From: an uncultured delta proteobacterium | Lineage (GTDB): Bacteria; Desulfobacterota; Zymogenia; Zymogenales; Zymogenaceae | Assembly (NCBI GenBank): GCA_963735595.1 | Contig: CAVTLK010000005.1 | Coordinates: 704,001-768,000 of the forward strand | DNA length: 64,000 nt | Direction of reading: 5' to 3' | Part shown: in pieces, positions 6,637 through 43,611 of the stretch | Position numbering within the stretch: position 1 is the first letter of the stretch | Layout: each line of letters begins with the position of its first letter | Notes under the pieces: model-generated | The model's input: only the letters and a program-made list of their open reading frames with translations | Databases searched by the model: none | What the model was told of the DNA's origin: nothing | Translations under genes and position numbers: made by a program

Positions 6637-6674
6637 TCATATTCTTCATAGCGTCCGCTATTACCCGGTAGAAT
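6637..6674 (+). promoter_or_regulatory. Putative late promoter of the packaging module
   Basis: TCATATTCTTCATAG-17bp-TAGAAT; same architecture at 28812 and 33789. Confidence 0.7.
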
Positions 6675-6702
6675 CGGACGTACAGATGTGGAGGTACGGA
6701 CT

Positions 6703-6933
6703 ATGTATAAAGGGGACACCTTTTTTGCGGAGCGTAATTTCGCGGTGGATTACGAGCGGGCGCTGATGGATATGCCCGACATGGAGCTCTGGATATGGCT
6801 GATGCACCGGCGGGGATACTCCCAGGGGTACATCGGCGACAGCATCGGCGTTACCCAGTCGGACGTGGCCTATCGAATCGACCGGATACAGGACTATATA
6901 AAGCGACGGGTGAATGAAGAAGAAATGCACTGA
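6703..6933 (+). CDS. Small sigma-70 region-4-like HTH protein (paralog of 24812-25066)
   Basis: GGAGG RBS; YERALMDMPD.ELWIWLMHRRGYSQ.YIG..IGVTQS.VAYRI.RI HTH pattern. Confidence 0.75.
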   Translation: MYKGDTFFAERNFAVDYERALMDMPDMELWIWLMHRRGYSQGYIGDSIGVTQSDVAYRIDRIQDYIKRRVNEEEMH

Positions 6934-7172
6934 AGAGGGGACCGGGGCCGCCCCGCCCGACGGCGGCGTCTCCCGCCGGTGACGGGGATGCCGCCGGCGC
7001 GGGGGGCGCTGACGCGGTCTTTCGGGACATCGTCAAAAAGGCCGGGGAGGGAAACATCAAGTACCAGGAGCTTTATCTCAAGTATATCGACCTCATTTCG
7101 GAAAGAAGGGACAACAAAGACGAAGTGGTTTACAAGGCGACCTTTATCGATGACGAAGATCAAGAGGCTTAA
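6914..7172 (+). CDS. Putative terminase small subunit (one frameshift, absent from the ORF track)
   Basis: Frame 3 reads DAVFRDIVKKAGEGNIKYQELYLKYIDLISERRDNKDEVVYKATFIDDEDQEA*; overlaps the TerL start; upstream ATG at 6914 is in another frame. Confidence 0.5.
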
Positions 7173-8373
7173 GCTGTACCGCCCCCACGCGGGCCAGAAG
7201 GCCCTGCACGAATCGGACGCCCGTTTCAGGGTGGCCGCGTGCGGCAGGAGGTGGGGAAAGACGCTGGCCGCCACGGCGGAGATGATCAGGCACGCCTGGG
7301 AAAGGCCGGGCTCTCTCTCGTTTTGGGTGGCGCCGGTGCTGCGCCAGAGCGCGATCGCCTTTGACCTGGTGAGGCGGGGGATGCCGCGGGGGACGGTGGC
7401 CGATATCCACAAGACCGACCGGAGGGTCGGCCTCGTCAACGGCTCGGTGCTCGAGTTCAGGAGCGCCGAGATCCCGGAAAACCTGCGGGGGTTCGGCATC
7501 GACTTCCTGGTGGTGGACGAGGCGGCCTTTCTCTCGAAGGACCTCTGGGAGGAGGTCCTGAGGCCGGCGCTTTCGGACCGGCAGGGCAAGGCGCTCTTTG
7601 TGGGCACGCCCAAGGGGAAGAACTGGTTTTTCCGCCTCTTTTCCCGTGGGATGGACAGCGAGCAGGCGGGCTGGCAGTCCTTCACCTTTCCCACCGAAAA
7701 TAACCCGTACATACGCCCGGAAGAGATCGAAGACGCGCGGCGGACCCTGCCCGAGGCGGTCTTCGCCCAGGAGTACCTGGCCCGCTTTGTCGACGACGGG
7801 GCGGGCGTCTTCTCGGGGGTCAACGACATCATCACGGGGAAACTGGCCGACCCGCTGCCCGGCGGACGGTATACGGCTGGACTGGATATCGGCAGGCACC
7901 GGGACTACACGGTGCTGACGATTGTCGACGGCAGGGGGTCGGTCGTCTACTTTGACCGCTTTTCCGGGACGACCTGGACGGCGATGAAACGGCGGGTGGC
8001 CTCGGCAATCAGGCGGTACAACCGGGCCGTCGCCTGGGTCGATTCCACCGGCGTGGGCGATCCGATCCTCGAAGACCTGATACGAATGGGCGCGGCCTGC
8101 CGGGGTTTCCGATTCACCAACGAATCAAAGTCGGCGCTCATCGAAAACCTTGTCCTCCTGATCGACGAGCGGAAGATCGGTATCCCCCCGATACAGGAGC
8201 TTATCGATGAGCTGGTGATGTTCGAGCTGAAAAACCTCCCGGGAGGCGGCGTCTCATACGGGGCGCCGGGGGGCTTCCATGACGACTGTGTCATATCGCT
8301 GGCCCTCGCCGCGTGGGGGATCAGGGGGATCAGGGTGAGCCAGTCGGACTTTGGACAAACGCTTGGTTTTTGA
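7150..8373 (+). CDS. terL: Phage terminase large subunit
   Basis: Walker A GRRWGKT, Walker B LVVDEAA, GTPKGKNWF, nuclease GLDIG, VDSTGVG and HDDCV motifs. Confidence 0.93.
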   Translation: MTKIKRLKLYRPHAGQKALHESDARFRVAACGRRWGKTLAATAEMIRHAWERPGSLSFWVAPVLRQSAIAFDLVRRGMPRGTVADIHKTDRRVGLVNGSVLEFRSAEIPENLRGFGIDFLVVDEAAFLSKDLWEEVLRPALSDRQGKALFVGTPKGKNWFFRLFSRGMDSEQAGWQSFTFPTENNPYIRPEEIEDARRTLPEAVFAQEYLARFVDDGAGVFSGVNDIITGKLADPLPGGRYTAGLDIGRHRDYTVLTIVDGRGSVVYFDRFSGTTWTAMKRRVASAIRRYNRAVAWVDSTGVGDPILEDLIRMGAACRGFRFTNESKSALIENLVLLIDERKIGIPPIQELIDELVMFELKNLPGGGVSYGAPGGFHDDCVISLALAAWGIRGIRVSQSDFGQTLGF

Positions 8374-8387
8374 TGAAAGGAGCCGGT

Positions 8388-8588
8388 ATGGATGCCGAAG
8401 TGCGGTTTACGGACGGAGAGACGCGGTCCTTCTTAAACGTGAGGTCAATAGACGTTCGCGACGGTGCGGTCATTGTCCGGCGGTGGGTCAGGGTCGTCGC
8501 GATACTGCCGATGGATACGATCCGCTGGGCGACGCTCGTCAGGCGCCGGAAGGTCTCACAGGACGACTTTGGGAAGGCCGCCCTGTAG
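8388..8588 (+). CDS. Small phage-module hypothetical protein
   Basis: AAGGAG RBS, 66 aa between terL and portal. Confidence 0.6.
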   Translation: MDAEVRFTDGETRSFLNVRSIDVRDGAVIVRRWVRVVAILPMDTIRWATLVRRRKVSQDDFGKAAL

Positions 8589-8649
8589 GGGTTCGGGCCT
8601 TCCCGCGGTTGCGGCCGGTTTACCGGCACGGCCCGCGAAAGGGAATCAT

Positions 8650-9897
8650 ATGAACAAAAACGACATGAAGCTCTTTCTTAACTATTACGACGGCTGCCGG
8701 GAGGCGATCTTCAAAGATTTCACGGTCCGCCGGGTCGCCGAAGGTCTGCCGAAAGAGCAGCGGATATCAATCAGGGACTTCTATTTTCAAAACGACATCC
8801 GGGTCATCCAGGACACGAGGGCGAACTTTATGCCGCCGACCTTCGACGTTGTCGTGACCAGGAGGGGCGAGACCGCGCCCCACGACGGGCTGACCGGCGA
8901 GGTAACGGCGTGGCTGAAGTCCCGCAACTTCGGCGGCGGCCGCACCTTCTGGGAGGCGCTGCCCGGCTACTACCTGACACAGGAGAACTACGGCACGCTC
9001 TTTTTGAAGCTCTTCGTCAGGGGCGGGGAGGTCTGTGTGCAGAAGATGTATTCCCAGGATGTGGAAGTAATCACGGACGAGAAGAACTACCTCGAAGTCA
9101 AGAAATACGTCTTCGGGTGGGAAGAGGCGGCGACGCTGGAGGGGGGAGGCGTGAGGATGTCGGTCATGCGGGAAGAGATCGACGCGGAGGGCTTCTCCTT
9201 TTATATCGACGGAAGGCTCGTAAAGAGAGAGGCGCACGCCTTCGGCTTTATCCCGGTCGTCAAGGTCCTCCGGGAGGAATCGGAGGGGAGCCCCTACGGC
9301 CGATCGGGAATCCAGGACCTGGTCGAGGGGCAGCTGGCCGTGAACATGGCGCTGACCAAGCGGGCCTGGGCTACGAAGTATAACAGCTTTCGGGTATGGG
9401 CGCCCAAGGAATCGGGCCACGTGGCGCCGGGCACGACCATCACGGTATCGCCTGGGGCGCTTTCGCCGATCCCCCTGGAGGCGGTGGGGGGCGACGTTGA
9501 CCTCTCGGCGGTGGAGCGCGAGCTCGAGGACGCGCTGGACCATCTCTACCGGATGGGATGCGTACCCCGAAAGCTCAGGGAGGAGATCGCCTCGTCGGCC
9601 ACGTCGGCAAAGGCGCTCAACACGCTGCTCGAGGGCCTCAAGCGGTACACCGAAAAAAAGCTGGTCTATCTGCGGAAAGGATTCGAAGAGCTGATAGAGA
9701 AGTCCCTTGCGGTCAGGTTCGGCACCGGCATCTTCGTGGCGACGGTATCGTTTCCGTCTCTCTCCGGCGAGGACCCCCAGCACGTGATGGCGCGGGCGCA
9801 GTTCCTGGCCGACCGGGGGTTTATGACCGAGGCGCTCAAGGAGCTCGGCTATGACGAACAGATGGTGGAGAAGATGAAGGGGAGCCAAGGCCCCTGA
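8650..9897 (+). CDS. Phage portal protein (SPP1 gp6-like)
   Basis: About 415 aa after terL; H.FGFIPVV...PYGRS.IQDL..Q.A.N motif. Confidence 0.8.
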   Translation: MNKNDMKLFLNYYDGCREAIFKDFTVRRVAEGLPKEQRISIRDFYFQNDIRVIQDTRANFMPPTFDVVVTRRGETAPHDGLTGEVTAWLKSRNFGGGRTFWEALPGYYLTQENYGTLFLKLFVRGGEVCVQKMYSQDVEVITDEKNYLEVKKYVFGWEEAATLEGGGVRMSVMREEIDAEGFSFYIDGRLVKREAHAFGFIPVVKVLREESEGSPYGRSGIQDLVEGQLAVNMALTKRAWATKYNSFRVWAPKESGHVAPGTTITVSPGALSPIPLEAVGGDVDLSAVERELEDALDHLYRMGCVPRKLREEIASSATSAKALNTLLEGLKRYTEKKLVYLRKGFEELIEKSLAVRFGTGIFVATVSFPSLSGEDPQHVMARAQFLADRGFMTEALKELGYDEQMVEKMKGSQGP

Positions 9898-10901: not shown

Positions 10902-10935
10902 CGGCCGGTTTGCTTCGCACGTATGCGGGGAGGTT

Positions 10936-11847: not shown

Positions 11848-12022
11848 CTGTTTCGTCCGCCTATATCCGGAGACCGGTATCGGATTGGCCTGGGCGGCAG
11901 GCCAAGACAGCGGAGTGGATGGGGCATGCCGACCATCGGGCTAAAGACGGTCGCGTGATAAATTCAGCGAATTCTTTTTGCCGTTTGCGCATCTATATAA
12001 CAATATATAGGGAGGTATTGTT

Positions 12023-24811: not shown

Positions 24812-25066
24812 TTAATTTTTCCTAATACGGGGATCACCCGTCTCCAACCGGCCGGTCACTCGTCGCCTAAAATGACGCTCTATCTTCTTAATCCGATGAC
24901 TGACCGCTGATTGGCTAAGGTTGAGCTTTCGGGCGATCCATTCCTGACTCTTACCGGCCCGGTGCATCAGCCAAACGAACAGATCATCGTCGGGGAGTTC
25001 CATAAGGGCCTTTTCGTATCGAGAGAAGAAGGTTTCCGATGGGAGGTAGCAATCGGGATTAAACAT
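24812..25066 (-). CDS. Small sigma-70 region-4-like HTH protein (candidate activator of the phage-like modules)
   Basis: AGGAG RBS; YEKALMELPD..LFVWLMHRAGKSQEWIA.KL.LSQSAVS.RIKKI; paralog of 6703-6933. Confidence 0.75.
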   Translation of the reverse strand: MFNPDCYLPSETFFSRYEKALMELPDDDLFVWLMHRAGKSQEWIARKLNLSQSAVSHRIKKIERHFRRRVTGRLETGDPRIRKN

Positions 25067-25098: not shown

Positions 25099-25266
25099 AC
25101 AATATGAAATAGTTCCCAATATGTCAACACGAGTCTTAGTCGATATCCCACTTATGGCAACTATTTGCTCTGGAATATTCCCAATACGTCAACTAATCCC
25201 CGATTATCTCGACTTATTTAGGTGTGTACGAATATAGTTGACATAACAGAAACTTACTACTACTAT
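25099..25266. promoter_or_regulatory. Divergent promoters with an array of 17-bp operators
   Basis: Minus strand TTGACA(25127-25122)-17-TATTGT; plus strand TTGACA(25238)-17-TACTAT; repeats of GTTCCCAATATGTCAAC type. Confidence 0.75.
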
Positions 25267-25272: not shown

Positions 25273-25821
25273 ATGAGCGACGGAGAAAATATTAAGAATA
25301 TACGAAGAAAGAAGGGATTAACCCAGGAAGAGCTCGGGGGGTTGTTAGGCGTCGGGAAATCGGCCGTCAGCCGGTGGGAATCGGGCGAGCGAGAGGTGAC
25401 GCTGGGTACGATGCGAGGCATCGCCACCGCCCTCGGCGTCCCCCTCGAATGGCTGGTGGAAGGGCTCGACTCTTCGGATGACCCTCCTATAGACGAGCAA
25501 AACCGCGGCATTCGTAAGAAAGATGGTACTATCTATGATTCAGGGCAGCTCAACGTCAGATCGAACGTGGACGAAGCATCGCACCGGATACCCGACGCGG
25601 CGGACCCCGATCATATTGGAGCCGTCTCGGAAAGGCAGGAGAATTTCAACGATCGGTCCCAAATATACCTCACCATACCCCGGATTGATGATCCCGAACT
25701 GATATCGGCTTTCGAGGGTTTCAAGGAATTGGATAAACTGACTCCGTCTGATATCGACGACATCAAGGCGATTCTAAAGATCGCCCAGCGGATTATCGAG
25801 AAACGGAGAAAGCTGGAGTAG
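25273..25821 (+). CDS. XRE-family HTH transcriptional repressor
   Basis: IKNIRRKKGLTQEELG.LLGV.KSAVSRWESGER; no S24 peptidase domain. Confidence 0.9.
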   Translation: MSDGENIKNIRRKKGLTQEELGGLLGVGKSAVSRWESGEREVTLGTMRGIATALGVPLEWLVEGLDSSDDPPIDEQNRGIRKKDGTIYDSGQLNVRSNVDEASHRIPDAADPDHIGAVSERQENFNDRSQIYLTIPRIDDPELISAFEGFKELDKLTPSDIDDIKAILKIAQRIIEKRRKLE

Positions 25822-28811: not shown

Positions 28812-28849
28812 TCATATTCTCAATAGTCCGACCGCCCCAGCCGTACAAT
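28812..28849 (+). promoter_or_regulatory. Putative late promoter of the head module
   Basis: TCATATTCTCAATAG-17bp-TACAAT. Confidence 0.7.
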
Positions 28850-28881: not shown

Positions 28882-29592
28882 ATGGTTGATGCTAACAGGT
28901 TTAGTATTTCAAGGCCGTCGGCGATTGCTGCCGATCCCGCACTAATCCGTTCGGGTATCGAGCCGGCGGCATCTGGCGGTGGCGCGCCGTCCGGTGGTGA
29001 TGCGGTAGAAACGGGTGATGGTTTTGATACTGCGCCGCTGGAGCGGCTGGTCCAGCTACTGGAGGCCCTTGCGGAACGGATTGAGACCCTCACTGAATTG
29101 ATGGCGCCGCTTGGCGAGAAACCGTGTGCGGACGGGGATAGCTCTTCGAGGGAGGTGATAGCCCGGGAAATTGAAGCGGCCGCCGACGCGCTGATCTACA
29201 CGGATTTTTTCCAGAAGGCCGTTGAACTCGGAATGAGCCCTAACATGGTTGCCGACGCCTATAAACTTGCCGACCTGACGGGCATAACGGCTAATCTGGA
29301 GACCAAGGAGGTAATTGGTACGAATGCGGCGGTCAATACCCTTCTTGAGAAGAGGCCGTATCTTTTCATCGTCCATCAGGTCGACATCGGAACGGAGACC
29401 AATCCAGTTAAAGGGCCGTCTTCTCATCCTGACGAGGTTGAGGGCCTGGCGCGGACGCTCGGAGTAAGCCCTGAGTTCGCCGCCGCGCTTGTCAGGAAAA
29501 GGTCGGACAAAGTGCGCGGCGATGTGGCGCTCTCCGACATATGGAGGATCCCGCGCGCCAACAGGCTTTCGTTTCTCGAAAACAAAGAATAG
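28882..29592 (+). CDS. Putative capsid scaffolding protein
   Basis: Low-complexity N-terminus, coiled coil, DAYKLADL.GI...V.G...AV..LLE.RPYLF; first gene of the head operon. Confidence 0.6.
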   Translation: MVDANRFSISRPSAIAADPALIRSGIEPAASGGGAPSGGDAVETGDGFDTAPLERLVQLLEALAERIETLTELMAPLGEKPCADGDSSSREVIAREIEAAADALIYTDFFQKAVELGMSPNMVADAYKLADLTGITANLETKEVIGTNAAVNTLLEKRPYLFIVHQVDIGTETNPVKGPSSHPDEVEGLARTLGVSPEFAAALVRKRSDKVRGDVALSDIWRIPRANRLSFLENKE

Positions 29593-29610: not shown

Positions 29611-30087
29611 ATGGCAACTTACATGAAATATGGTTACAGCTACGGTCCCCGGGTCGTTGTCACGGCCAGAGTGGCGGATACCGGCACGATTGATGACGGC
29701 GATATCGTCGTCTTGGACGCGGTGGGTGGGGCCGCCGGAGCTGGATACATCAAGAAGTGGAGCGCCGCGTCCGATCCCATCGTGGGTGTCGCTCTTGAAA
29801 AGGTCGAGCAGAAGCCCGATGCAGACGGCGATGAATCCATACAAATCGTGCTGGCGATACCGGGTAGCGTCTTCGTTTATCCCGCCCAGGGCGTCGGGCG
29901 GGGCCATTGCTTCCAGACCTGCGATATCAACGGGCCCCAGTCGGTGAACATTGCGGCCGATACCTACAAGAACGCCTGGATCATCGAGGTTGACGAGGAA
30001 ATGGGTTTGGCCTATGCGATGCTGAAGGGGCCGTTTTCGGAAAACGATACCGGATCGGACATCGACTACGGCACGGCAGGTGCCTAA
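29611..30087 (+). CDS. Putative capsid decoration/cement protein
   Basis: I..GD.V.L...IVGVA beta-rich pattern; lies between scaffold and capsid genes. Confidence 0.5.
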   Translation: MATYMKYGYSYGPRVVVTARVADTGTIDDGDIVVLDAVGGAAGAGYIKKWSAASDPIVGVALEKVEQKPDADGDESIQIVLAIPGSVFVYPAQGVGRGHCFQTCDINGPQSVNIAADTYKNAWIIEVDEEMGLAYAMLKGPFSENDTGSDIDYGTAGA

Positions 30088-30108: not shown

Positions 30109-31092
30109 ATGGGAATTATGGTATCAGGCAATTTTCCCGAGCTTCTTACCCAGGATCTCTACGAATGGTATTTCGAATCATACGACGCCGAAGGAACGGT
30201 CTATGACAAGATCGTCGAGGTCGTGCCGGTATCGACGGGAGACGGGATAAAGGGTACCGAGGTTATCGGGGTTTCCCGGCTCAAGGAAGTCCCGGATGGG
30301 CAGGAGATACCGCTCACCGAACCCTCCGAGGGATGGACCTGGTATATCAAGTTCAAGACGTACAAGGACCAAATCGCGCTTACCGACGATATGCTGAGTG
30401 ACCTCAATGCGGGGAAACTTAACGCCGATCTCATGGAATTTGCCAGGGGCTGGGGCGAAGGAGTCAGGATTACCGAAGAGGAGGCGGTTGCCCGAGTCTT
30501 CAATAAGGGTGCGATGGGGGCCGGCGACCGTATCGCGTTTAACGGCTCGTTCACCAACAACGACGATCCGTATCCGAAGTTCATTTACGACGGAAAGGGA
30601 TTCTTTGGGGCCGGGGCGGACGGCCACCCCTTTAAGCTCAAAGGCTCAGTCAGACTGAATAACCTCACTACGAGCCTGGATATGAGCTACGATACTATCC
30701 AGACCGTCTATTCGGCGATGGCCGTTACCAATGCGGTAAACGAGCGGGGAGAGCGGGTCAAGATCGAGCCCAATGTTATCGTTACCAATCCCAAGAACCG
30801 ATTTGTCCTTGATCAGATTCTACAGTCCGTCTACGAGATAGACGCCTACGGGAACAAGAATGTCCTGGAAGGGATGTTTACACCGGTTTACTGGCGGTAT
30901 ATCGAAGACGATAACGCCTGGTACATGGGCGTGGCTCGTCGGGGTGTTCGTTTCTATGACCGCCAGCCGGCCAAGATCACTGTCTACCGTGACGAGGCCA
31001 CCGATACCTGGTTTGCCAAGATAAAACGACGTTTCGGTGTTGGCGTGGTCCAGTGGCGCTATTGGTACGCGTGTAACGTGGCCACAAGTTGA
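30109..31092 (+). CDS. Major capsid protein (HK97 fold, Mu gpT-like)
   Basis: 327 aa; NFPELL, L.EVP.G.EI, Y...IALT..M..D, E..VA.VFN, YDGK.FF...HP, NERGE.V.I.P..IV, AWY. Confidence 0.8.
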   Translation: MGIMVSGNFPELLTQDLYEWYFESYDAEGTVYDKIVEVVPVSTGDGIKGTEVIGVSRLKEVPDGQEIPLTEPSEGWTWYIKFKTYKDQIALTDDMLSDLNAGKLNADLMEFARGWGEGVRITEEEAVARVFNKGAMGAGDRIAFNGSFTNNDDPYPKFIYDGKGFFGAGADGHPFKLKGSVRLNNLTTSLDMSYDTIQTVYSAMAVTNAVNERGERVKIEPNVIVTNPKNRFVLDQILQSVYEIDAYGNKNVLEGMFTPVYWRYIEDDNAWYMGVARRGVRFYDRQPAKITVYRDEATDTWFAKIKRRFGVGVVQWRYWYACNVATS

Positions 31093-31150: not shown

Positions 31151-31438
31151 ATGGCGATTATCAGCGATATTCAGGTTTCGAAACACGGTTGGTTTTCCAA
31201 CGATGTTATTAAGGCACTCACCGATTCGTTCGTGGAGTTTGAATTCGGGTTCGCCTCTTTTTCCATCACGGTTTTCAATGACGCCGAGAGCGGTTGGATC
31301 GAATACTCGTTTGACGGACCTAACGCTAATGGAAGGGTAATGCCGGGGGAAACGCGGAAGATGGACTTCTGCCGTCACGGGGCGATATGGCTGCGGGGGG
31401 AGAGCGGGGCCGAACCCTATCGCTTGGAGGTCTACTGA
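31151..31438 (+). CDS. Phage head-module hypothetical protein
   Basis: AAGGAG RBS; TGATG coupling to the next gene. Confidence 0.6.
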   Translation: MAIISDIQVSKHGWFSNDVIKALTDSFVEFEFGFASFSITVFNDAESGWIEYSFDGPNANGRVMPGETRKMDFCRHGAIWLRGESGAEPYRLEVY

Positions 31439-31644
31439 TGGGATTCACGAAAGAACAGCTGGGTGCCGTGGAGGCCGAGATCGCTTCCCTTAAGGCCGGC
31501 ACCTTTTCAATAGGCCAGCTGAGCGTTGACCAGGAAAAGACTCTGGCCGCGCTCATCCGTCTGCGGGAGGTCATGATGGCCGATCTGGCCGGCAGCGAAG
31601 GGATAAGGTTTGGCAGGGCCATGATCGACGGAATGGACAGGTAG
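31438..31644 (+). CDS. gpW-like head-tail joining protein
   Basis: 68 aa; FT.EQL.AVEA.IAS...L..L..LR..M..DL helix-hairpin-helix pattern. Confidence 0.6.
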   Translation: MGFTKEQLGAVEAEIASLKAGTFSIGQLSVDQEKTLAALIRLREVMMADLAGSEGIRFGRAMIDGMDR

Positions 31645-31740
31645 CAATAACGAATTGAAAGATGATCGGTCCATTTGGTTGCATGGTCGTCGTTTAGACG
31701 GCACCTGTAAGGGCTCGAGTGCGTTGGTAGTTTCTAAGCT

Positions 31741-31778
31741 GGGCGTCCGGAATCTTATACGCCGGAGGCCCGTTTTTT
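31741..31778 (+). terminator. Intrinsic terminator of the head module
   Basis: GGGCGTCCGG...CCGGAGGCCC followed by GTTTTTT. Confidence 0.6.
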
Positions 31779-31927: not shown

Positions 31928-31957
31928 TTGACAGGAAGCTGACGGGGAACCTATAAT
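31928..31957 (+). promoter_or_regulatory. Consensus sigma70 promoter
   Basis: TTGACA-18bp-TATAAT. Confidence 0.75.
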
Positions 31958-33788: not shown

Positions 33789-33826
33789 TCATATTATTCA
33801 TCTCAACATGCTTCGCGTGACATAAT
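33789..33826 (+). promoter_or_regulatory. Putative late promoter of the tail/lysis module
   Basis: TCATATTATTCATCT-17bp-CATAAT. Confidence 0.65.
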
Positions 33827-34006
33827 CATTACCAGATATGAAGGGCAGTCGGCCCAAGATTACGTGCACCTCTCCTGATTTCCGCAGATACGTGAAGGAA
33901 AAGAGGGGATGGGCGTTGGAGGTCACGATAATCGTGGGTTATAAAGCCTGGGAGAAGGGGATTATTTCCCTTCTCCCGGGCCAATAGAAATGAGGAGGAG
34001 GGGCCC

Positions 34007-34348
34007 ATGCCGGCGTTACTTGATCGATCCATGATTGATATCGCATCCCATATCATTGATTTTCTTGGAGATAACATGGTATTTCAGCGACATACCGAAA
34101 GTGCATGGGAAGAATTAGGGCCGGCCGTTAAAGTATACCTACAGCCTCGGGACTCCTTATATCAAAGGTCTTTTCGGGGGAATGAAAACTCAATTGATTT
34201 TACCGGATTTGCGGCGGTAGCTGCTGATATTCGAAAAGGTGATCGAATAACAATCAACGATGAGTACTTTATTGTTGACCTCCTTGAGAATCGGGACACG
34301 CACCTTGAATTCCGCCTCAGGCAAACCGATGAAATCCGGGACACATAA
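34007..34348 (+). CDS. Putative head closure / head-tail adaptor protein
   Basis: 113 aa; DIRKGDRI.I....F.V pattern typical of SPP1 gp16/FII-like proteins. Confidence 0.6.
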   Translation: MPALLDRSMIDIASHIIDFLGDNMVFQRHTESAWEELGPAVKVYLQPRDSLYQRSFRGNENSIDFTGFAAVAADIRKGDRITINDEYFIVDLLENRDTHLEFRLRQTDEIRDT

Positions 34349-34386: not shown

Positions 34387-34836
34387 ATGCTGGTTTTTGG
34401 AAGCGAAATCCAGGAGCTGATATACGGAATATTGACCGGAGACGCTGTCCTCTTAACGTATCTGGGAGGGGACGAGATCGATAGACGGATTAGTCTCTCG
34501 TTGAGTGATTCAAACGTGCGGAAAATAAGCACGACTAAACCGGCTTATATCGTGGTAGAGACGATGCCTGCCCCCGCGCCGGTCCTCCTTGGTTCCGCAA
34601 TTGAAGAAAGGACGGAGCGGTATTGCCTGCACATATTCACCAAGCCCGAGGCCCGGGATCTGAGGGCGGCAATTGAGGGTAGGCTTCGAGGGCTGTTACA
34701 TAGGAAGAGCTTCCTTACGGCCAGGCTTATTGTTTATAACGTCTTCGAGGGTGTAAGAGAGGGTGTGATTACCGGGGCAGGCCTCTTTGACTATAGGTAT
34801 GGAATATCTTTTCAGTTCTTGCCGAAGGGCGATTAA
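34387..34836 (+). CDS. Putative tail terminator/completion protein
   Basis: IQ.LIY..L..DA.L..YLG...PAYIV; directly upstream of the tube gene. Confidence 0.6.
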   Translation: MLVFGSEIQELIYGILTGDAVLLTYLGGDEIDRRISLSLSDSNVRKISTTKPAYIVVETMPAPAPVLLGSAIEERTERYCLHIFTKPEARDLRAAIEGRLRGLLHRKSFLTARLIVYNVFEGVREGVITGAGLFDYRYGISFQFLPKGD

Positions 34837-34860: not shown

Positions 34861-35628
34861 ATGGGAACGGAAAAACTCGATCGGTCCGCAGTAGGTACAA
34901 TTGAAATCAACGGCGGTTCCGGTTGGCAAGTCCTTGGGATCATCAGAGAAGAAACCGTACGCGTTAACGGGGAAGAGATCACCCATTTTGACGCTTCTGA
35001 ACATCCGCGAGGTGTTGATAAAACGGTCTTTGGTAACGTTGATGTGGAAATCGAGTTCACGTGGGAGGAGATCGCTGATATCAGCTTATGGATTATAGTA
35101 TTACACGGCGGGAGTCTAACTGCAACGACAGCTGGTATTCAAACGGTAGTGAATGAAGACTTGGTAATGATGGGGATAGACTGGATTACGCTTGCTCATG
35201 CAGCCGATTTTGCCTTTGATAGCTCAGTGAACGTTAGTAACCGGGAGGGTAGCGTTACTTATATCGAGGGGGAGGATTACTACCTGGACCGTAAAGGCGG
35301 GCATCTTAAACGGATCTCAAGTGGGTTAATCGGTGAGGGCCAGACGGTAGGTGTTGATTATACGTATAAAACCTATTCCGGCAAGTGCTTCAGGATCTTC
35401 GAAAATCCAGCGCCTACCGTTTCTACCTTTCGTCTCACTAAGCACTTGCTTAACGGAGATAATCTCCGGATAACCCATAGCAGGGTCAACTTCTCTTCTA
35501 CGACCGAACTCCCTCTGAAACCCGGGGAAGGTGGTTCGTGGGCGGGTGTGACAAGTAGAATCAGATTCCTAAAAGATATTGGTGGAGTTTACGGCGCATA
35601 CGGGCGTTGGGAAATCTACACGCCATAG
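34861..35628 (+). CDS. Major tail tube protein with inserted beta domain
   Basis: 255 aa; TY.EG.DY.LD...G.L.RI..G.I..G..V.VDYTY insertion seen in siphovirus tube proteins; synteny. Confidence 0.65.
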   Translation: MGTEKLDRSAVGTIEINGGSGWQVLGIIREETVRVNGEEITHFDASEHPRGVDKTVFGNVDVEIEFTWEEIADISLWIIVLHGGSLTATTAGIQTVVNEDLVMMGIDWITLAHAADFAFDSSVNVSNREGSVTYIEGEDYYLDRKGGHLKRISSGLIGEGQTVGVDYTYKTYSGKCFRIFENPAPTVSTFRLTKHLLNGDNLRITHSRVNFSSTTELPLKPGEGGSWAGVTSRIRFLKDIGGVYGAYGRWEIYTP

Positions 35629-35778
35629 CATATCCATTTTTCTAATTCATAGATTAAACTGCTATTAGCCTGCTATGTCATACTCTTATAAAAATAAGGA
35701 CATAGAGTCCAGGTATCACATGTGCAATGTGAACGTATTGATGACTTGCTACGATATCTGGGTGAGGAAGGAAGGTGA

Positions 35779-36171
35779 GTGGTGAGCTGTATTATTGGCG
35801 CAATAACTCTTGATAGTACCCCTCTTTGGGTTGACAGGAACCGACATAACGACTTAAGCGCTGAAACTGCTATAGCAATTGATGGTGCTGAAATTGTCCA
35901 ATCTCATAGCCGGGGAGAACATTACCCCATCACGCTTCAGTCTACCAAAGAGACGGGCTGGCTCAAGGGATCGACCGTGACATCTTTGAGGGCGTTATCT
36001 GCCGTTGCAAACGCCTACTATACACTGACGCTGAATTCAGGTTCATATACTGTACGTTTCAGGAATGAACAATCTGGCGGGGCGATACAGGTTGAAACGT
36101 TATTCCCGCATTCGAATCCGGGAGATGCGGATTGGTGGATCGGCACCATTTACCTAATGCGTACTGGATAG
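35779..36171 (+). CDS. Putative distal tail (Dit-like) protein
   Basis: L.W.D...AIDGA.IVQ...PITL...GWL...V..L.AL...TLTL...V.F pattern. Confidence 0.5.
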   Translation: MVSCIIGAITLDSTPLWVDRNRHNDLSAETAIAIDGAEIVQSHSRGEHYPITLQSTKETGWLKGSTVTSLRALSAVANAYYTLTLNSGSYTVRFRNEQSGGAIQVETLFPHSNPGDADWWIGTIYLMRTG

Positions 36172-36180: not shown

Positions 36181-37650
36181 ATGAGTGCAGTCACAGGTCT
36201 TTTCAAATCATCGGTCGTGTCGGATGAAACCACTAACGGCGGGGTGCTTTCGAATAATGCCGTCGTGGACAACACCGCTGAAAACGTATTCCCACACGTC
36301 AACGAAGCGGACCGAACGGCGGGAATTACGAGATACCGGGACGTCTTGGTCAAGAAACTTTCCGGGACCCTGACGAACGCCAAGTTTATGATCGACCGCC
36401 TTTCGACTGCCGGAGATTATATCGTTATCACCCGTGCCGGTGATAGCCACACACAACTGACGGCTGATGACCTCGGATGGAATACCACCGTTACGTGGAC
36501 GCTTGCAACCCGCACAATCGTCTTGGGCGCGGCACGGGCGGAAGTTACACCGGGGACGCTCCTATTATTCACGACCGCTGCCGGGGCCTTCCGGGGCATT
36601 GCAACAGTGGCGACATGGACAAATACCACTACCATGACAATCTCCACTATGATACGCGGTTCCAATCCGGCTACTACAGACATAGTCTATACCTGGTACA
36701 CCGGATCGGGCGACCTCCATACGGCTCTCACCGGGGGGGTAGATACAACGGTTGTCGCAGATTTTGAGGTTACGGCCTGTATCCTGCCGGGTCAGTATGT
36801 TGCCCTCATAGACTGGGACGCCGCAACTCCACCGACGATTGAATACTGCCTTGTTACAGTAACTGCATGGGCCGGGACGGAGGGGACGCTCACCATCTCG
36901 CCCGCCTGCGTCTCAAATCACGCGGTCAAGACTCAGGGGACGGTAACCGGGACCGAAGATGAGAACTTCGACCTCGACGGGCTCACGCTGGTAATCAAGG
37001 TCAACGGGGGGGATTCCCAGACCGTTACATTCTCATCTGACGGAATGACGGCGGCCCAGGTTGCCACGGCGATAAATAGCGGAACGACCGGATGTACGGC
37101 GGCGGCCTCCGGCACAAAGGTCGAGATCGTGACCGACGACTACTATGCCGAAAACTCGATACAGGTACTTTCCGATTCAACAGGAGATACGGAGCTTGGC
37201 CTTGATAACTCCGTACATAACGGGACGACGGGTACGGTAGTTGCCGGGGTGTTGGAACTCGGGACTATCGCGGCCTCTCATAGTACCCCGGTAAAGACCT
37301 CGCCACTCGGGACGTTCACGGACAATATCGTCAACTACGACCTCGGGGCCTGCTACGATACCATTACCGTGACCTTCTCATCGGCAACGGCCTTCACGGT
37401 CGCGGGGGCGGCAGAGGGGTCTTTGGGAGCCGGGACGATAAGCACCGTCTTTAAACCGGCGCACTGGGGCTCGTACTACTTTGAGATCCCGACATCATGC
37501 TGGGGCGGGACGTGGGCCAACGGGGATACGCTGGTATTCATCACCTATCCCTCGGCAGAGGCGATCTGGATGAAAGAGGTCGTGCCAGCTTCTACGGCGG
37601 CTTACTCGGGGAATAAGTGTAGCTTCACTCTCGATGCGGAAACGGCCTGA
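36181..37650 (+). CDS. Phage tail/baseplate structural protein (Thr-rich)
   Basis: KS..VSD...NGG.LS...VVD...NVFP.V...DR.AG..RYR N-terminus; beta-rich. Confidence 0.6.
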   Translation: MSAVTGLFKSSVVSDETTNGGVLSNNAVVDNTAENVFPHVNEADRTAGITRYRDVLVKKLSGTLTNAKFMIDRLSTAGDYIVITRAGDSHTQLTADDLGWNTTVTWTLATRTIVLGAARAEVTPGTLLLFTTAAGAFRGIATVATWTNTTTMTISTMIRGSNPATTDIVYTWYTGSGDLHTALTGGVDTTVVADFEVTACILPGQYVALIDWDAATPPTIEYCLVTVTAWAGTEGTLTISPACVSNHAVKTQGTVTGTEDENFDLDGLTLVIKVNGGDSQTVTFSSDGMTAAQVATAINSGTTGCTAAASGTKVEIVTDDYYAENSIQVLSDSTGDTELGLDNSVHNGTTGTVVAGVLELGTIAASHSTPVKTSPLGTFTDNIVNYDLGACYDTITVTFSSATAFTVAGAAEGSLGAGTISTVFKPAHWGSYYFEIPTSCWGGTWANGDTLVFITYPSAEAIWMKEVVPASTAAYSGNKCSFTLDAETA

Positions 37651-38144
37651 TGCCCGACGACGTAATCTACATGACCCCACTCCCCGAGAATGAGGGGGTG
37701 ATACTACATGGAACCACTCGCGGCGCTTACGGGTGAGATCTATATGGACAAGAAAATCATATTAACCGGAGGCGGCACCGGTGACGAGGAAGCAGATATC
37801 ACATGGACGTATATGGGGGAGGGTGCTTTTTGGGGCGGTCTTTTCGCATCACCCTTATGGAATTCTACTCCTGGCGATTTTTCAAGTGCTACGTCATCGC
37901 ATCCAGTCGTGTATTATTCGGGATGGAAATATATAAGATTCATAGCATATACCGGGACTCTATGAATAACCACTGGCAAATAGTTCTGGAGATTCGGTTT
38001 ATACGTTTTCATTCAAGAGCAGTAACGATTTCGGTTCAGTGGGCGACACTATATCTCTTGGGCCATCCGGCGCATTTCTGTTGGGATATTATGACCCGAG
38101 TACTGCCGGGTGTTCGGGAGGGCTCGGATACAGATGGTATTTAG
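37650..38144 (+). CDS. Small tail-tip protein, frameshifted
   Basis: TGATG coupling; 12-aa IYM repeat restored by removing one base near 37704; end uncertain. Confidence 0.4.
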
Positions 38145-38151
38145 GTAAATA

Positions 38152-40926
38152 ATGGGCTTTTTTGTAAAAGAGTATTTCAATCTACCTGACGGATATTTTC
38201 AGGAAAGTATCAATACTGCAGTGGCGGGCAGCGGCTCCGTCTATCAGGACGGGACATACGGATATATCCAGACATCGGCGAATGCCGATGCGGCCATTAT
38301 CGTATCTGACGAATCCCTTTCCGCTGCCGAGTTTTTCAATAAGGCCATTACGTTTTCACTATCCTATCAACTGACCTCACTGCCGGACGGAGACTCCCTG
38401 AGTCTGATGCAAGATAGTAAACAGCGCTACACAAGCCGGAGATCGATACGCTCGGTAATTACCAGTTACTATTGCAGACTGACCCGGACGGGAGCGACGT
38501 ATTACGAACGGTGGTACTACTACGACGCATCGGCGACCCTGCGCACGTATGACGGCGCGCACGAATGCGTGGACGACGACGACGACCAATAACGTCAGAA
38601 CGATTAACCTTTCGACAACTTATACTCTGACAATAACATGGAATCCCGTAACGCCGCACGTTTACGTTTCGCACATGACGGCGCAGAATCGGCGGTATCA
38701 AATGCTATAAGATTCGAGAATAACCCGTGGTGGTGGTTTATCGGTGATGATGAGACGGCAAACAATTATGGGGTATTGCGATTAGATCATATCTACGTCA
38801 CGGATATCAGCACCCGCAACCGCTTCACCATCCGCAACAGCCTCACGAAAGCCTACAAGAAATCACCGATCCTGACGATCATCAATAACCTGACGACGCG
38901 GCACAGGGATTCGTTCACCCTCAAGAACTCTATCCTCGACCATGAGCCATACCGTAATAACTTCACCGCCCTCAATAACATCGGCGTCGAGGGGCAACTT
39001 ATCTATCTCGACGGATCGTGGCAGACGGTAAACATCAAGGGTAAGCAGCTTTCCAATCGGGCCACGGTGGCGATCGACGGCGCGGACGTATCCAGCAAGG
39101 TCACGGATTGGTCTATCGACTATGACGACCAGACGCTATGTAAGACCGTTTCCGTAACCGTGAAAGATCGGGCATACGCGCAGTCTATCCAGACCAGGAA
39201 GTATTCAGATTCAGACTTCGATACCGCCCGGATAGAGATCATAGGATGTAGACGGGTATTCCCTCGGTGAGTTCCTGATCGAGAACAAATCCGAGAACGC
39301 CGCGCACAAATCTTATTCCTGCACCCTCTCGGGCAGGTCCATGACTGCCTTACTGGATATCCCGTTTTCCGAAAGACTCCAGACGCTTTATGACGAGGCC
39401 ACGAGCAAATCGGCGGTAGTCGGCGACCTCGCCGGGATAAGAGCCTGACCGTACAGTGGGGGATCCCCGACTCCGTACTTCCTATCGGGGCGCTGGCCTG
39501 TGACGACGAACCCCCTATTTCTGTCATCAAGAAGATCGTCGAGGCCGGGGGGGGACTGGTCTATACCGACCGATCCGATAACCTCGTATGCGCCTACAAG
39601 GACTATGAGACTGCCGGAAAGTCCCCGGTGATGTCCATTTCCTCCGGCGATATCGTGTCCATCTCTCAATCCCGGATGGTCCCGAACGGAGAAAATCAGG
39701 TCACGGTAGAGGGGTTCATAGACACCTCGATTACCGACGGGTGGGCACAGATCAGCATAGAAGCATCGAAGTACAAACTCAAATCCAACGGCTTTGACTC
39801 CGGTACAGTAACCGCGACCTGCCGGAACGAGGACCAGACGATACCCGATGTGGAGTTGCAGACCGACGAAGAACAGACCCCCGCGACCAACGACCACTAC
39901 GAAATATCCGTTACTTACATGATTGATAAGGACGCGGGCGGTGTCGTCTCGATCGTCAAGCAGTCAGACTCGTCCCTTGTCGCCGGTCCCTATGAAGTCA
40001 TCGACGCCCGTACGATCCGCGTTGGAACCGCGATGGCTGACACGACCTACCTTGTCACCTACTACGGGGGCAACACCGTCACCTTTTCGGTAGACGCTAA
40101 CGCCGATATCTCACCTACTGAAGTATTGGTCAAGAACGGGCGGGCCGAGGCGACGCTGCGGGCCTCATCGGGGGGAGGGGGGTACGCCGTTGTTTCCGCT
40201 GATTACCTCGACGCCCAGACCGCCCAGCTCACCGTCACGATAGCAGATCCACGGGTGGGGCAGGTGGACGTGAGCGCCGATCCTTCCTCTATATCAATCG
40301 GCGAGACCTCGACGGTCAAGATACAGGTGCTTGATTCCGACGGATACCCCGCCGACAACGGGTTGTATGTCGATATCTCGGTAATCGGACACGGACAGCT
40401 CATAGACTACGCCGGGGTGGTCACTCCGACAACGGCAACCACCACGACCGAATCCATCACCGACGGGGGGATTGAAAACGGGCAGTATAACCCGATCTAT
40501 CCCGTATCGGAAATCGAGGTATCCACGCAATACCAGATCAGCGCCTTGACCTCGATCTATCGGTATGAGAATGGCCTGCCGTATACTGATGTCAACTATG
40601 CGTCGGGGGCGACGGTGGACGGGAATACGATCACACTGGCAACGCCCCTGCCGAGTTCGGTTACGCCGATTCAGGTAACCTATGACTGTACCGGGATAGC
40701 GACATCGACGTTTTCCTATCCATCCTACCGGGAGATCCCGAAAACCTCCATCCAAAACCTCATCGTTGCGCAATGCGGGGGTGAGGTCGGGTCTACGTTC
40801 ATCACCATCGAAAGCCCGTATGGTGGGACGGGTGGGGGCGGTGGAGCGGGCGGTGGCGGGCCAATCAGTCCTCATTGGGTATATATAGATATCAAGGCAT
40901 CATCCGGCGGCAAATTCATACGGTAA
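38152..40926 (+). CDS. Central tail-tip/hub protein with Ig-like domains, broken by several frameshifts
   Basis: Consecutive same-strand fragments; GRSMTALLD.P and PISVI.KIV.A.GG.VYTD hub-like motifs; invasin/Ig-like V.ADP.SI..G.TSTV...VLD..G.P. Confidence 0.55.
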
Positions 40927-41505
40927 TGTCATACGGAACGGCAAAAGTGGTTTGGGCCCATCGACTAGAAGGCTCATCATATCGAATGACGCAAGCCAGG
41001 CTTCGATACGAGCGAGGCGGTGTGGGAAGACAAGACGGGCATGGGAAGCTTCCAGTGGTATGTTAACGAGGAACGTGCCAGTAGATATAGCATCTTGACA
41101 TTGAAGGTACATGGACTTGCGCGAGCTTCCGACAACAGGTTCCGACACTACGAACACGGACAACACAGGGAAGACCTACGTCTCGGGGTCGAGGATAGTC
41201 AAGAACGGGAACGACCATAGTGTTGTGATAGAACACGCCTACGTACTCTATCGCATGGGGAGAAGAGTACCGAGACGGGATACACCAATGTCAACGGCAT
41301 CCTGACGTTCTCAAAGGGACAGCCGGGCGTAACGGGGGTCGTGACACTGACTCATCCAGAATACGAAACTACCACGGCCTCGATCACCATACCGGGGAGC
41401 ATTACCAATTCAAATGTGACAAACGATGATTCCGATACAGGCGTCACGAAATGGTCCCCGATACAGGTAAAGGTCAAGATACCCTACTACTGGGAGAGTG
41501 TATGA
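40926..41505 (+). CDS. Tail-associated protein, frameshifted
   Basis: TAATG start coupling and ATGA end overlap; fragments in several frames. Confidence 0.4.
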
Positions 41506-41825
41506 TAAGCGTATCCTGCCACTACGGGGACGGTTCAAGACCGCTGGACGCGGTGACGGACAGCCTCATTATCACCGAGGCTGACGCGGTCAACCGGGGA
41601 TATGCGGAGCTCAACAAGGCATGGAAGATCGTCGATTCCTACACCGTCTCGATGCCGTATCCGGCAAACGGGTATCTCCTCGAAGTGGGAAAGCATATCA
41701 AGGTCACGTGTCCAGAAGTGGGACTTGTCAACCAGGTCTTATACATCCAGGGCGTATCGCTTTCCGGGAATGATAAAGGCACGAAGATCACGCTGACCCT
41801 CGAAAAGTACGAGGCGTTTGAATGA
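41502..41825 (+). CDS. Phage tail/baseplate hypothetical protein
   Basis: D.LI.TE..A..RG.AEL...P...LE.G..I.V pattern resembling the hub C-terminal domain. Confidence 0.5.
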   Translation: MISVSCHYGDGSRPLDAVTDSLIITEADAVNRGYAELNKAWKIVDSYTVSMPYPANGYLLEVGKHIKVTCPEVGLVNQVLYIQGVSLSGNDKGTKITLTLEKYEAFE

Positions 41826-42094
41826 GCCTGAAAACATACATTGCCCGAGCAGCGCGGGCCGCCCAGGTCAATAACTATGCCACGGGCAAGGTCATCTCGG
41901 TAGACAGTGATGGGCGGCATTTGGTGGAACTCACCAGCGGGCGACGGATCATGGTCTACTCGGCATCGGGTGTCAACTATACCACTGGTGACTATGTATC
42001 AATCAGGTATCTCTCCGGGGATAAGAGACAGGCGGAGATCGCGGGGAAAACTACAAAGATCGGAGCAACGACAACAAGGATGGTGTACCGATGA
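41822..42094 (+). CDS. Small OB-fold-like tail spike/baseplate protein
   Basis: GKV.SV..DG...VEL..G......Y..GD.V.I; ATGA overlaps. Confidence 0.5.
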   Translation: MSLKTYIARAARAAQVNNYATGKVISVDSDGRHLVELTSGRRIMVYSASGVNYTTGDYVSIRYLSGDKRQAEIAGKTTKIGATTTRMVYR

Positions 42095-42306
42095 CAGACG
42101 GAAACGGGATAACGGCGGCAGAATTTAGGGGCAAGATGCTTGAACGGACAGAGGACATACTGCGGCGCATCACCGACCTCGAAAAAAAGGTTGATTGTCA
42201 CGTCGTCGATCTCGCCATGCTCAAAGTCAAGGCGGGGATGTGGGGATTTCTGGCCGGGGCAGTCCCCTCTCTTGCGGCCCTGCTCGTAATGATATTCAAG
42301 GATTAG
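42091..42306 (+). CDS. Holin/hemolysin-like protein (coiled coil plus C-terminal TM)
   Basis: RITDLEKKVD followed by a hydrophobic helix; precedes the endolysin. Confidence 0.5.
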   Translation: MTDGNGITAAEFRGKMLERTEDILRRITDLEKKVDCHVVDLAMLKVKAGMWGFLAGAVPSLAALLVMIFKD

Positions 42307-42308
42307 CC

Positions 42309-42755
42309 ATGAAGATGCGAGATGAAGATTGGCAGCTGGTTAAATATTTCGAGGCACAGGAATTTTCCCCGAGTCCCCACATGATGGAGCAGTCGATTGT
42401 TTTTCTGATCGATACGATACGCGACCTCTATTGCTCACCAATCAATATCACGTCGGCGTGGAGTCCGGGGACCGGGCACTCGGCAACATCACAACACTAC
42501 GTCGGCAAAGCCGTTGACTTCTGGATCGAAGGGATACCATTCAAAGATGCCGTGGGCCTGATGGAGGATTTTTTGAGCGCACCGCCTCGCGGGATAGGTG
42601 AATGGGATAAGGTAGGGCTCGGGATATACCCTCATTGGCTGCACCCGGGATTCCATCTTGATACCCGGGGAGCGATGGCCCGCTGGGGCGCAGTAACACG
42701 GATGGGAAAGCAGGTTTATGTATCATGGGATAACGCAAACAAGGCGGTAGTATGA
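42309..42755 (+). CDS. Peptidase M15-family endolysin
   Basis: KYF...EF, PI.ITSA, SQH..GKAVDF, GLGIY, FHLDTRG zinc-peptidase motifs. Confidence 0.85.
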   Translation: MKMRDEDWQLVKYFEAQEFSPSPHMMEQSIVFLIDTIRDLYCSPINITSAWSPGTGHSATSQHYVGKAVDFWIEGIPFKDAVGLMEDFLSAPPRGIGEWDKVGLGIYPHWLHPGFHLDTRGAMARWGAVTRMGKQVYVSWDNANKAVV

Positions 42756-42946
42756 AGATTTGGGAGGCTATCGGAGGGCGCAAGTTCCTGGCACTCACGC
42801 TGGCGTGTATAGTGTACGTCTGGACGGGTCGATTTGATTTCAACCTCGCGCTCATCTTTGCCGCGTATATGGGTGCAAACGTTTTGACTAAGTTAGTTAA
42901 TGGGAAGAAGGAGAAAGAGGTTGAGGTTAAATATGATACTCACTAA
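42752..42946 (+). CDS. Putative holin
   Basis: 64 aa, GGRKF followed by two TM helices and a charged tail. Confidence 0.6.
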   Translation: MKIWEAIGGRKFLALTLACIVYVWTGRFDFNLALIFAAYMGANVLTKLVNGKKEKEVEVKYDTH

Positions 42947-43166
42947 AAAGAGGATCCTCTTTGTTAGCATTATCATAGCCCTTTGGGCGCTAATAATGCT
43001 CTGGGGCATTCACAGGTACCGGGAAGACGCACTGACGGAAAAGCAGGTTTCCACCCGGAGCCTTCAGGCTCAGGAACGGGTAACACGAGAGTATATTCCC
43101 ACGAAATTGAAGGAAAAGGACTCTGATGAACTAACAAGGATAGGGGTAAACCTATGGGGAGAATAA
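42933..43166 (+). CDS. Putative i-spanin-like protein
   Basis: N-terminal TM plus short helical domain within the lysis cassette. Confidence 0.4.
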   Translation: MILTKKRILFVSIIIALWALIMLWGIHRYREDALTEKQVSTRSLQAQERVTREYIPTKLKEKDSDELTRIGVNLWGE

Positions 43167-43585
43167 ACAAACTTACTTATTCTATGTCTGGAATGGCTGT
43201 AATATTGAGTAGCCTGATCTGCCTGTTAGTGATAGCAGGTGGATGTTCCACCGCGTCATGGATAATTCATCACAACGGCTCAGGCGATGATCTTCTTATT
43301 AACGAGGCCGACGTGGATGCAATGATTACTGAATTGTCGCTGGTACAGCCAGTAGACTCGGAAACCATACTCCATAACGAAACCACGGATCGATATGAGC
43401 TCACGCCGGATGCCTACAGGAAAGCGATAAGGGACGGGATTATCAGGAGGATTCAGGATAGTAAGATCAGCGCATTTCTTGAGAGCTACCGTCGCGAGAG
43501 TTTTGCCGACGCCCTAAGGAAAGATATGGGCACGGTCGGGACTATTATCCTGTTCCTCGGGATCCTCGGCGGCCTGTTCTATTAA
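43154..43585 (+). CDS. Putative spanin lipoprotein with C-terminal TM
   Basis: Lipobox-like IAGGC and terminal TVGTIILFLGILGGLFY helix. Confidence 0.45.
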   Translation: MGRINKLTYSMSGMAVILSSLICLLVIAGGCSTASWIIHHNGSGDDLLINEADVDAMITELSLVQPVDSETILHNETTDRYELTPDAYRKAIRDGIIRRIQDSKISAFLESYRRESFADALRKDMGTVGTIILFLGILGGLFY

Positions 43586-43611
43586 AAAGGCGCGGTAACA
43601 ACCGCGCCGTT
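43585..43611. terminator. Terminator hairpin ending the tail/lysis module
   Basis: AAAA-GGCGCGGT-aaca-ACCGCGCC-GTT between convergent genes. Confidence 0.6.

Follow-up and report, generated by a model that had tools for sequence, protein, structure and literature searches.

The stretch of DNA analysed here, referred to as the window, comprises 64,000 nucleotides (G000:C5:704001-768000) of the 3.63 Mb genome (5 contigs, 93% complete) of an uncultured member of the family Ca. Zymogenaceae, which was compared with its relatives in a sample of ten family genomes (G000-G009, G000 being the genome of the window). It harbors a phage-type element divided into a packaging, a head and a tail/lysis module by intervening host genes. 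Domestication of this element by its host is near certain, and a particle resembling gene transfer agents (GTAs), with a ruler-less or stub tail, is its moderately probable product. The class Zymogenia (Desulfobacterota) has been described as fermentative in a study whose main text contains no occurrence of 'phage' or 'virus' (10.1101/2021.03.22.436540).

Gene content and the shared promoter

The three modules of the initial annotation are real. TerL, portal, capsid, tube and M15 endolysin are borne out, the scaffold weakly so, and family scans confirm the intervening and flanking host genes purF, purB, LCP, PAS sensor, nitroreductase and gltX. The labels gpW-like (31438), adaptor (34007) and tail terminator (34387) reflect gene position or weak matches, and the morphogenesis set, then called nearly complete, misses the tape measure, the tail chaperones and a neck1/tail-completion gene. 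This loss of tape measure and chaperones had been overlooked, as had the paralogue at 6703, the operator array and the IrrE/ImmA protease described below. The module genes, all on the plus strand, are the following open reading frames (ORFs; lengths in amino acids, aa), with the terminator at the end.

6914..7172, plus strand, small terminase (TerS) candidate by position, with a conserved core of ~45 aa and a charged, unconserved N-terminus; frameshift near 6969 in the assembly
7150..8373, plus strand, large terminase TerL (PF03237; phrog_2, E 9e-47); Walker A/B and nuclease acidic residues kept
8373..8588, plus strand, conserved 71-aa ORF
8650..9897, plus strand, portal, SPP1 gp6-like (weak: PF05133 below cut-off, phrog_104)
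28882..29592, plus strand, scaffold (weak: phrog_2303 E 0.009, PF06810 E 0.011)
29611..30087, plus strand, capsid cement/decoration-like (feature scores 0.93-0.95 to viral DUF2190/cement clusters)
30109..31092, plus strand, major capsid protein, Mu gpT-like (PF25209)
31151..31438, plus strand, conserved 95-aa ORF
31438..31644, plus strand, conserved 68-aa ORF, head-completion label positional (no profile match)
34007..34348, plus strand, head closure/joining-like (weak: NF049848 E 0.04)
34387..34836, plus strand, tail terminator label, positional (no profile match)
34861..35628, plus strand, tail tube (phrog_807; NF052337 above cut-off)
35779..36171, plus strand, protein of Dit/tube-initiator fold (phrog_4408 and predicted fold)
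36181..37650, plus strand, tail-tip/baseplate protein with variable internal domains (family scans)
37708..38144, plus strand, hypervariable tip ORF, 156-183 aa in relatives, broken in this assembly (comparison with relatives)
38152..41505, plus strand, large tail-tip protein, 1078-1110 aa where intact (lectin-like N-terminal domain, phrog_6079, beta-rich remainder)
41502..41825, plus strand, baseplate-hub C-terminal-like (phrog_177)
41822..42094, plus strand, small conserved tip ORF, OB-like (weak matches)
42091..42306, plus strand, putative holin with one C-terminal hydrophobic segment
42309..42755, plus strand, M15-type endolysin (family scans)
42752..42946, plus strand, small membrane protein, holin-like (phrog_1322, weak)
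42933..43166, plus strand, putative i-spanin with an N-terminal hydrophobic segment
43154..43585, plus strand, putative spanin-like lipoprotein with a lipobox-like Cys and a C-terminal hydrophobic segment
43585..43610, no strand assigned, terminator hairpin at the end of the tail/lysis operon (called at 43589-43608 on the minus strand)

The solved structures nearest to the TerL of the element include T4 gp17, the other nearest entries being, as we take them, P74-26, G20c and Sf6; all four are headful packagers. Profile searches against PDB sequences gave nothing useful for the cement, Dit, tip, terminator-like and gpW-like proteins. The predicted model of ORF 35779 (pLDDT 75) finds mostly tail and baseplate chains in its list of fold matches, the best with Z 9.4 and an rmsd of 7.4 for 107 aligned residues. 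The model of the 1091-aa tip protein is poor (mean pLDDT 43.8), and fold searches back its lectin-like N-terminal domain only. A search of the tube against 50,697 phage records yielded a single weak match, and the capsid scan of IMG/VR one candidate, which was not confirmed.

All modules share a promoter with a TCATA-type box 32 bp before the -10 hexamer. Within the window it is found at four places, the first three by both matrix and pattern search.

6637..6674, plus strand, module promoter 1
28812..28849, plus strand, module promoter 2
33789..33826, plus strand, module promoter 3a
35647..35684, plus strand, promoter copy 3b, weak here, within the 150-bp gap between tube and Dit (35629..35778)

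With a matrix trained on 13 sites, all outside G000 and G003 and excluding the tail upstream region of G008 (score 1.6), the three G000 promoters take ranks 1-3 among ~7.26 million positions (scores 34.2, 30.0 and 28.0, the next being 22.8). The three matching promoters claimed initially are thus the best of the genome; their count was incomplete, as the weak copy at 35647 had been missed. A pattern search of the ten genomes gave 21 matches, 20 of them ahead of module genes and one ahead of a 108-aa ORF downstream of the regulatory switch of G007; 17 of the 21 came from sites used to derive the pattern and four did not, and the reversed control gave four matches.

The fourth copy lies ~95-140 bp upstream of Dit in all six genomes with a tube-Dit gap above 100 bp; its scores of 7-20 are reached by 12, 2, 1, 0, 0 and 0 of 300 shuffles, respectively. 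In G000 it is weak and would not stand out alone, since 359 genome sites score at least 8. G002, with a gap of 14 bp, has no fourth copy, and in G006, where host genes lie between tube and Dit, the downstream half keeps a promoter copy of its own. No copy is present upstream of Dit in the matching prophage stretch. An ORF of 108-113 aa with a hydrophobic N-terminus is located 3' of the IrrE gene in three genomes (G007:C48:64457-64783, G009:C214 and G004:C190) with a copy of the module promoter that scores 35 in G007 and 24 in G009; G000 has no match to it, and it is possibly an extra member of the regulon.

The terminator hairpins reported for the head and tail operons are also present, that of the head operon (~31740-31775) having been spotted by eye and missed by the scanner. 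Generic promoter and terminator scans of 28.5-44 kb gave no excess over shuffles. The leader before the first tail gene (33826-34006) is long, contains hairpins and is similar across the genus, without a match in Rfam.

Inheritance and the regulatory switch

Capsid and TerL orthologues are present as single copies in nine of the ten family genomes, with 74-99% and 58-96% identity to G000, respectively. The tenth, G005, also lacks purB and a syntenic gltX, and therefore its lack of both orthologues is probably an assembly gap and not a loss. The packaging module adjoins gltX in eight and the head module adjoins the nitroreductase gene in seven of the nine system-bearing genomes, the remainder being cut by contig ends. 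Conserved synteny, which the initial annotation had proposed as a check, thus holds for these two anchors. Outside the family, 391 genomes from elsewhere in the phylum were scanned with the capsid profile, and none gave a match at E<=1e-30. The genes between the modules vary by genus, and the argument that excision would remove purine genes holds for the genus of G000 but not for other genera, where purB lies on other contigs than the modules.

Selection and gene trees, analysed with prophage contigs excluded, agree with this conservation. Pooled ratios of nonsynonymous to synonymous substitution (dN/dS) are 0.06-0.18 for packaging, 0.03-0.11 for head, 0.12-0.23 for tail, 0.08-0.15 for lysis and 0.06-0.07 for host genes, with ~0.03 for the capsid alone. 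Several pairs have saturated dS, and dN is lowered by the identity filter applied to G000, G002 and G003; the safer figures are those of the unfiltered G007-G008 pair (0.14, 0.11 and 0.23 for packaging, head and tail). Purifying selection is thus confirmed. The g1 and g5 genus clades are recovered in the RpoB, TerL+portal, capsid and tail trees, while G004 and G006 change place between trees, with highly supported conflicting positions in the capsid and tail trees; judged by these topologies, the module trees appear broadly to follow the host tree.

The same layout occurs in independent assemblies of four genera. Furthermore, contigs from other sequencing runs bridge the junctions from capsid to host gene, host gene to tube, tube to Dit and lysis to host gene, which speaks against a chimeric assembly, none of these contigs covering the whole stretch. 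An RNA run (X20) contained short, diverged contigs only and is not evidence of expression.

Decaying or recently inserted prophages, or a chimeric assembly, could account for the missing tail genes and for the state of the 1091-aa tip gene, which is interrupted by eight frameshifts, but by no nonsense codon, in G000 and by 18 frameshifts in G003, almost none common to both. Two tip genes of G000 carry 1.7 frameshifts per kb, compared with 0.05 in the host genes compared (one in 18.4 kb). This explanation is nevertheless largely refuted and retains very little probability: the layout recurs across genera, junctions are bridged, dN/dS is far below 1, and the breaks are exclusively indels. Moreover, the tip gene is a single ORF in G001, G006, G007 and G008, while the essential purB itself has seven frameshifts in G002. 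Indel errors of the G000 assembly are also seen in gltX, which reads in three frames. We read the tip-gene frameshifts as probable consensus errors, but their rate in G000 is high, and the gene may have decayed in that strain.

Own genes for replication, integration or excision were not found. A tyrosine integrase is absent from the window, the closest PF00589 match lying ~140 kb past its end; no serine recombinase was recognised among the 73 window ORFs scanned, the rest of the genome not having been searched for one; and the 20 largest of 32 repeat families include no att-like repeat flanking the region. The initial statement on integrase and att sites thus stands. In addition, 258 ORFs from prophage stretches of three relatives had no match in G000 outside the modules save a few host-type or unassigned genes. 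An active siphophage prophage was considered and rejected: tape measure and chaperones, integrase and att sites, and replication genes were not found, and the distribution is not patchy. Domestication is well supported because the element is present family-wide in single copy, at fixed anchors, under purifying selection, with host-like trees and a dedicated promoter, and because mobility and replication genes were not found.

Control of the element is probably exerted by a phage-type switch made up of the following parts.

24812..25066, minus strand, sigma4-like helix-turn-helix (HTH) protein, candidate trigger activator (family scans, weak PRK06930)
25112..25253, no strand assigned, three to four imperfect palindromes of GTTGAC-N5-GTCAAC type with a period of ~32 bp over divergent promoters, candidate repressor operators
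25273..25821, plus strand, CI/Xre-like repressor (HTH_3; S24 domain not found), apparently leaderless in this genus
6703..6933, plus strand, sigma4-like HTH protein, first gene of the packaging operon and ~42% paralogue of 24812, candidate late activator/autoregulator (PRK06930 below cut-off)

In all nine system-bearing genomes HTH 24812 and the CI-like gene point away from each other next to the LCP gene, and the three to four palindromes occupy conserved positions over both switch promoters. This position gives the operators their weight, as the consensus alone is common (58 genome sites at <=2 mismatches). Both HTH proteins resemble sigma region 4 and weakly match PRK06930, a positive-control sigma-like family. 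An IrrE/ImmA-family protease (PF06114) is encoded directly after the repressor in G004 and G007, and orthologues (58-76%) exist in seven genomes; the IrrE match of G008 is a different, stopped copy adjoining an integrase. IrrE-type switches answer stress or DNA damage. Cleavage of an Xre repressor by an IrrE-type protease has been stated for IrrE/DdrO (PMC6868357). In G000 the orthologue has moved to G000:C2:641278-641750, beside an ABC-transporter binding-protein gene, and is frameshifted in the assembly. In all four genomes of this genus a GmrSD restriction gene (25978-27660 in the window) directly follows the repressor, in the slot taken by IrrE in other genera. The proposed circuit of repressor, operators, protease, two candidate activators and one promoter type is legible from the sequence, so that a laboratory host would suffice for testing it, even with no culture of the organism itself.

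A repressor combined with a sigma4-like activator with weak positive-control sigma-like matches, a full lysis cassette and a fast-changing, lectin-bearing tip would also suit a domesticated particle that, like PBSX in function, kills or binds competitors or lyses a sub-population while packing host DNA or nothing useful. We consider such a role unlikely. The tube matches family NF052337, which presumably denotes a non-contractile tail, and no sheath gene was recognised among the window ORFs scanned; killing by non-contractile tails generally requires a tape measure. Moreover, conservation within the element is highest in the packaging and head genes.

The tail and the proposed mechanism

Between tube and Dit, tape measure and tail chaperones are absent in all seven genomes in which this junction is visible. 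The gaps in the domesticated loci measure 150, 147, 634, 14, 502, 542 and 5632 bp. In G004 (G004:C287:852-1154) and G008 (G008:C103:4449-4793) the tube is followed by an ORF of 100-114 aa, the two being similar to each other in the last 33 aa only; it is possibly a remnant of a chaperone or ruler. Searches with PF10145 (in G000) and with phrog_28 and the tape measure of the prophage G007:C16 (ten genomes each) gave matches in prophages only, and none in G000.

The missing genes might be located at another, unrecognised or unassembled locus of a conventional multi-locus GTA. GTAs are often spread across distant loci (PMC11841831), tape measures diverge fast, G000 is 93% complete, and the IrrE gene has been relocated far away in this genus. 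This is nonetheless improbable, as neither the three tape-measure queries nor the 258 prophage ORFs revealed a candidate in G000, as tape-measure matches throughout the family are confined to prophages, and as none of the 11 next-best promoter sites inspected in G000 precedes a recognisable tail gene.

The prophage on G007:C16 (36.9 kb) shows the same gene order of tube, Dit, tip and lysis, but its tube and Dit genes are separated by a chaperone-like ORF, another ORF and a tape measure of 275 aa; it also carries replication initiator and RusA genes. It seems to be a complete prophage, its tape measure being unusually short. Its TerS has 153 aa and a weak DNA-binding match. Two further prophage-like stretches, G008:C20 and G006:C18 (112-150 kb), contain related tip genes together with long tape measures (958 and 1001 aa, respectively). 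The tip protein of C16 falls within the domesticated ones, and going by this placement tip genes may have been exchanged with phages.

Such resident phages could supply tape measure and chaperones in trans, so that tails would form only upon infection or prophage induction; the element would then be a GTA triggered by phages or a sink directed against them. The homologous tip genes and the tape measures of all three prophages, the nesting of the C16 tip protein and the response of IrrE-type switches to stress or DNA damage speak for this completion by a helper. It is still a doubtful explanation: the homologues are merely 25-50% identical, no such prophage was found in G000, and the element retains lysis genes of its own.

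We tentatively propose, with the contrary having the better chance, that this family-wide, independently domesticated particle builds a long-tail-type tail from tube, Dit and tip without a tape measure, a promoter having taken the place of the ruler and chaperone genes. Tail length would then follow from how strongly two operons are expressed relative to each other, or the tail would be completed only with a ruler borrowed from related phages. Either, if true, would add a novel route for assembling tailed particles and delivering DNA. Tube and tip kept under selection after loss of the tape measure challenge the requirement for a ruler and bear on the shrinkage of GTAs.

The complete mechanism, which we judge somewhat better than even, is as follows. 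An old temperate siphophage would have been domesticated before the sampled Zymogenaceae genera diverged. The genes for replication, integration, tape measure and tail chaperones would have been lost, and the rest split into host-anchored operons, each bearing a copy of the shared promoter. Bound to the palindromes, the CI-like repressor would cover both its own promoter and the promoter of HTH 24812, until a stress signal activates the IrrE/ImmA protease and the repressor is cleaved. HTH 24812, and then its paralogue 6703 as amplifier or limiter, would bind the TCATA box beside the -35 position and turn on all modules. Scaffold, capsid, cement and portal, the genes of which are present, would form a head that TerL fills with host DNA in headful mode, presumably without sequence choice, as TerS appears to have no DNA-binding head. 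The most uncertain step is a stub tail, perhaps built without ruler from neck, few tube rings, Dit and the lectin-bearing tip. Finally, holin, endolysin and spanins would lyse the producer, and the particles would carry random host DNA to kin in the manner of GTAs. Judged by the gene content, gene transfer would be the likeliest use; a GTA is made plausible by the intact TerL motifs and by the nine TerS candidates (61-131 aa as aligned), in which no HTH family match was found.

Several observations weigh against this proposal. Phage TP901-1 yields only heads when its tape measure is mutated to lack one end or the other (PMC5099701), and a ruler-less tail may therefore fail to assemble or to inject. 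G007 is without a domesticated tube or terminator gene and G006 without an IrrE orthologue. The TerS label is positional. Frameshifts interrupt the tip gene of three genomes (G000, G002 and G003), and monophyly of the domesticated tip proteins is rejected with p-AU 0.019, where branches are long (p-AU 0.46 for ORF 36181). Tail genes show a dS of 0.57 versus 0.23 for host genes between G000 and G003, and the carbon cost is not consistently reduced relative to prophage homologues.

The window contains further genes outside the modules. Apparent splits in gltX (5000-6481), a MetX-like hydrolase (50107-51479) and a P-type ATPase (60125-62303) fit long-read indel errors. Secreted-protein genes are tandemly duplicated at 3432-4817 with a period of ~845 bp, with extra copies in G003. 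Three ORFs with a zinc ribbon (10119-11847 and 21239-21931) have numerous paralogues in G000. Between head and tail modules, a secreted protein of repeated beta domains is encoded at 31991-33433, with its own perfect sigma70 promoter at 31928-31957; it is present at this place in G006, too.

Comparison with known systems

The element resembles RcGTA and CcGTA in its vertical inheritance, its multi-locus organization, the lack of detected replication and integration genes, a dedicated candidate activator and, if the positional TerS label holds, a TerS without detected DNA-binding domain. It differs in ancestry, as far as family matches instead of direct protein comparison indicate, with a Mu gpT-like capsid, an SPP1-like portal and a terminase of T4-like family, and further in that core structural genes are split and control is exerted by a phage-type repressor switch. 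Membership in the RcGTA family was rejected, since the capsid is Mu gpT-like and a tape measure was not found, while RcGTA retains one (PMC7947584). Loss of the DNA-binding domain has been described for small terminases of GTAs (PMC6854486, PMC11841831).

FpGTA of Faecalibacterium is encoded by two distant operons, one for head and packaging and one for baseplate, fibre and lysis, with a TerS without obvious DNA-binding domain; its particles have no visible tail, contain ~9 kb of host DNA and are probably podovirus-like with short-tail homologues (PMC12946183). The Zymogenaceae element shares the distant operons and, as far as its positional TerS candidate shows, may share the lack of a DNA-binding domain, but is set apart from FpGTA as described by its long-tail tube and Dit genes without a ruler. 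Dd1 of Desulfovibrio desulfuricans is the GTA of another deltaproteobacterium and has a short TerS; the difference, by indirect comparison, is that the capsid profile is without match in the 391 genomes of other families mentioned above.

PBSX of Bacillus subtilis shares with the element a repressor with a sigma-like activator and a lysis cassette, both HTH proteins of the element matching PRK06930 weakly. PBSX packs host DNA and is encoded at one contiguous locus with contractile tail and tape measure. The element is split across loci, no sheath is recognised in the ORFs scanned, and its TerL scores 14 bits against the PBSX family TIGR01547 (cut-off 105). Of the initial proposal of a domesticated phage-like system, possibly of PBSX type, domestication is upheld while PBSX membership is not, the regulation being merely similar. 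Finally, the resident prophages G007:C16, G008:C20 and G006:C18 have homologous tail-tip genes, and C16 also tube, Dit and lysis genes, but they possess other head and terminase genes where seen, carry a tape measure and occur each in one genome only.

In the literature covered, which mostly leaves out subscription papers and does not include supplements with possible prophage lists, no description of a GTA-like element in the Ca. Zymogenaceae lineage was found. By its predicted anatomy the element appears GTA-like and outside the RcGTA and PBSX families, and it ranks as a strong candidate for one more GTA-like element of independent origin, in the family Ca. Zymogenaceae.

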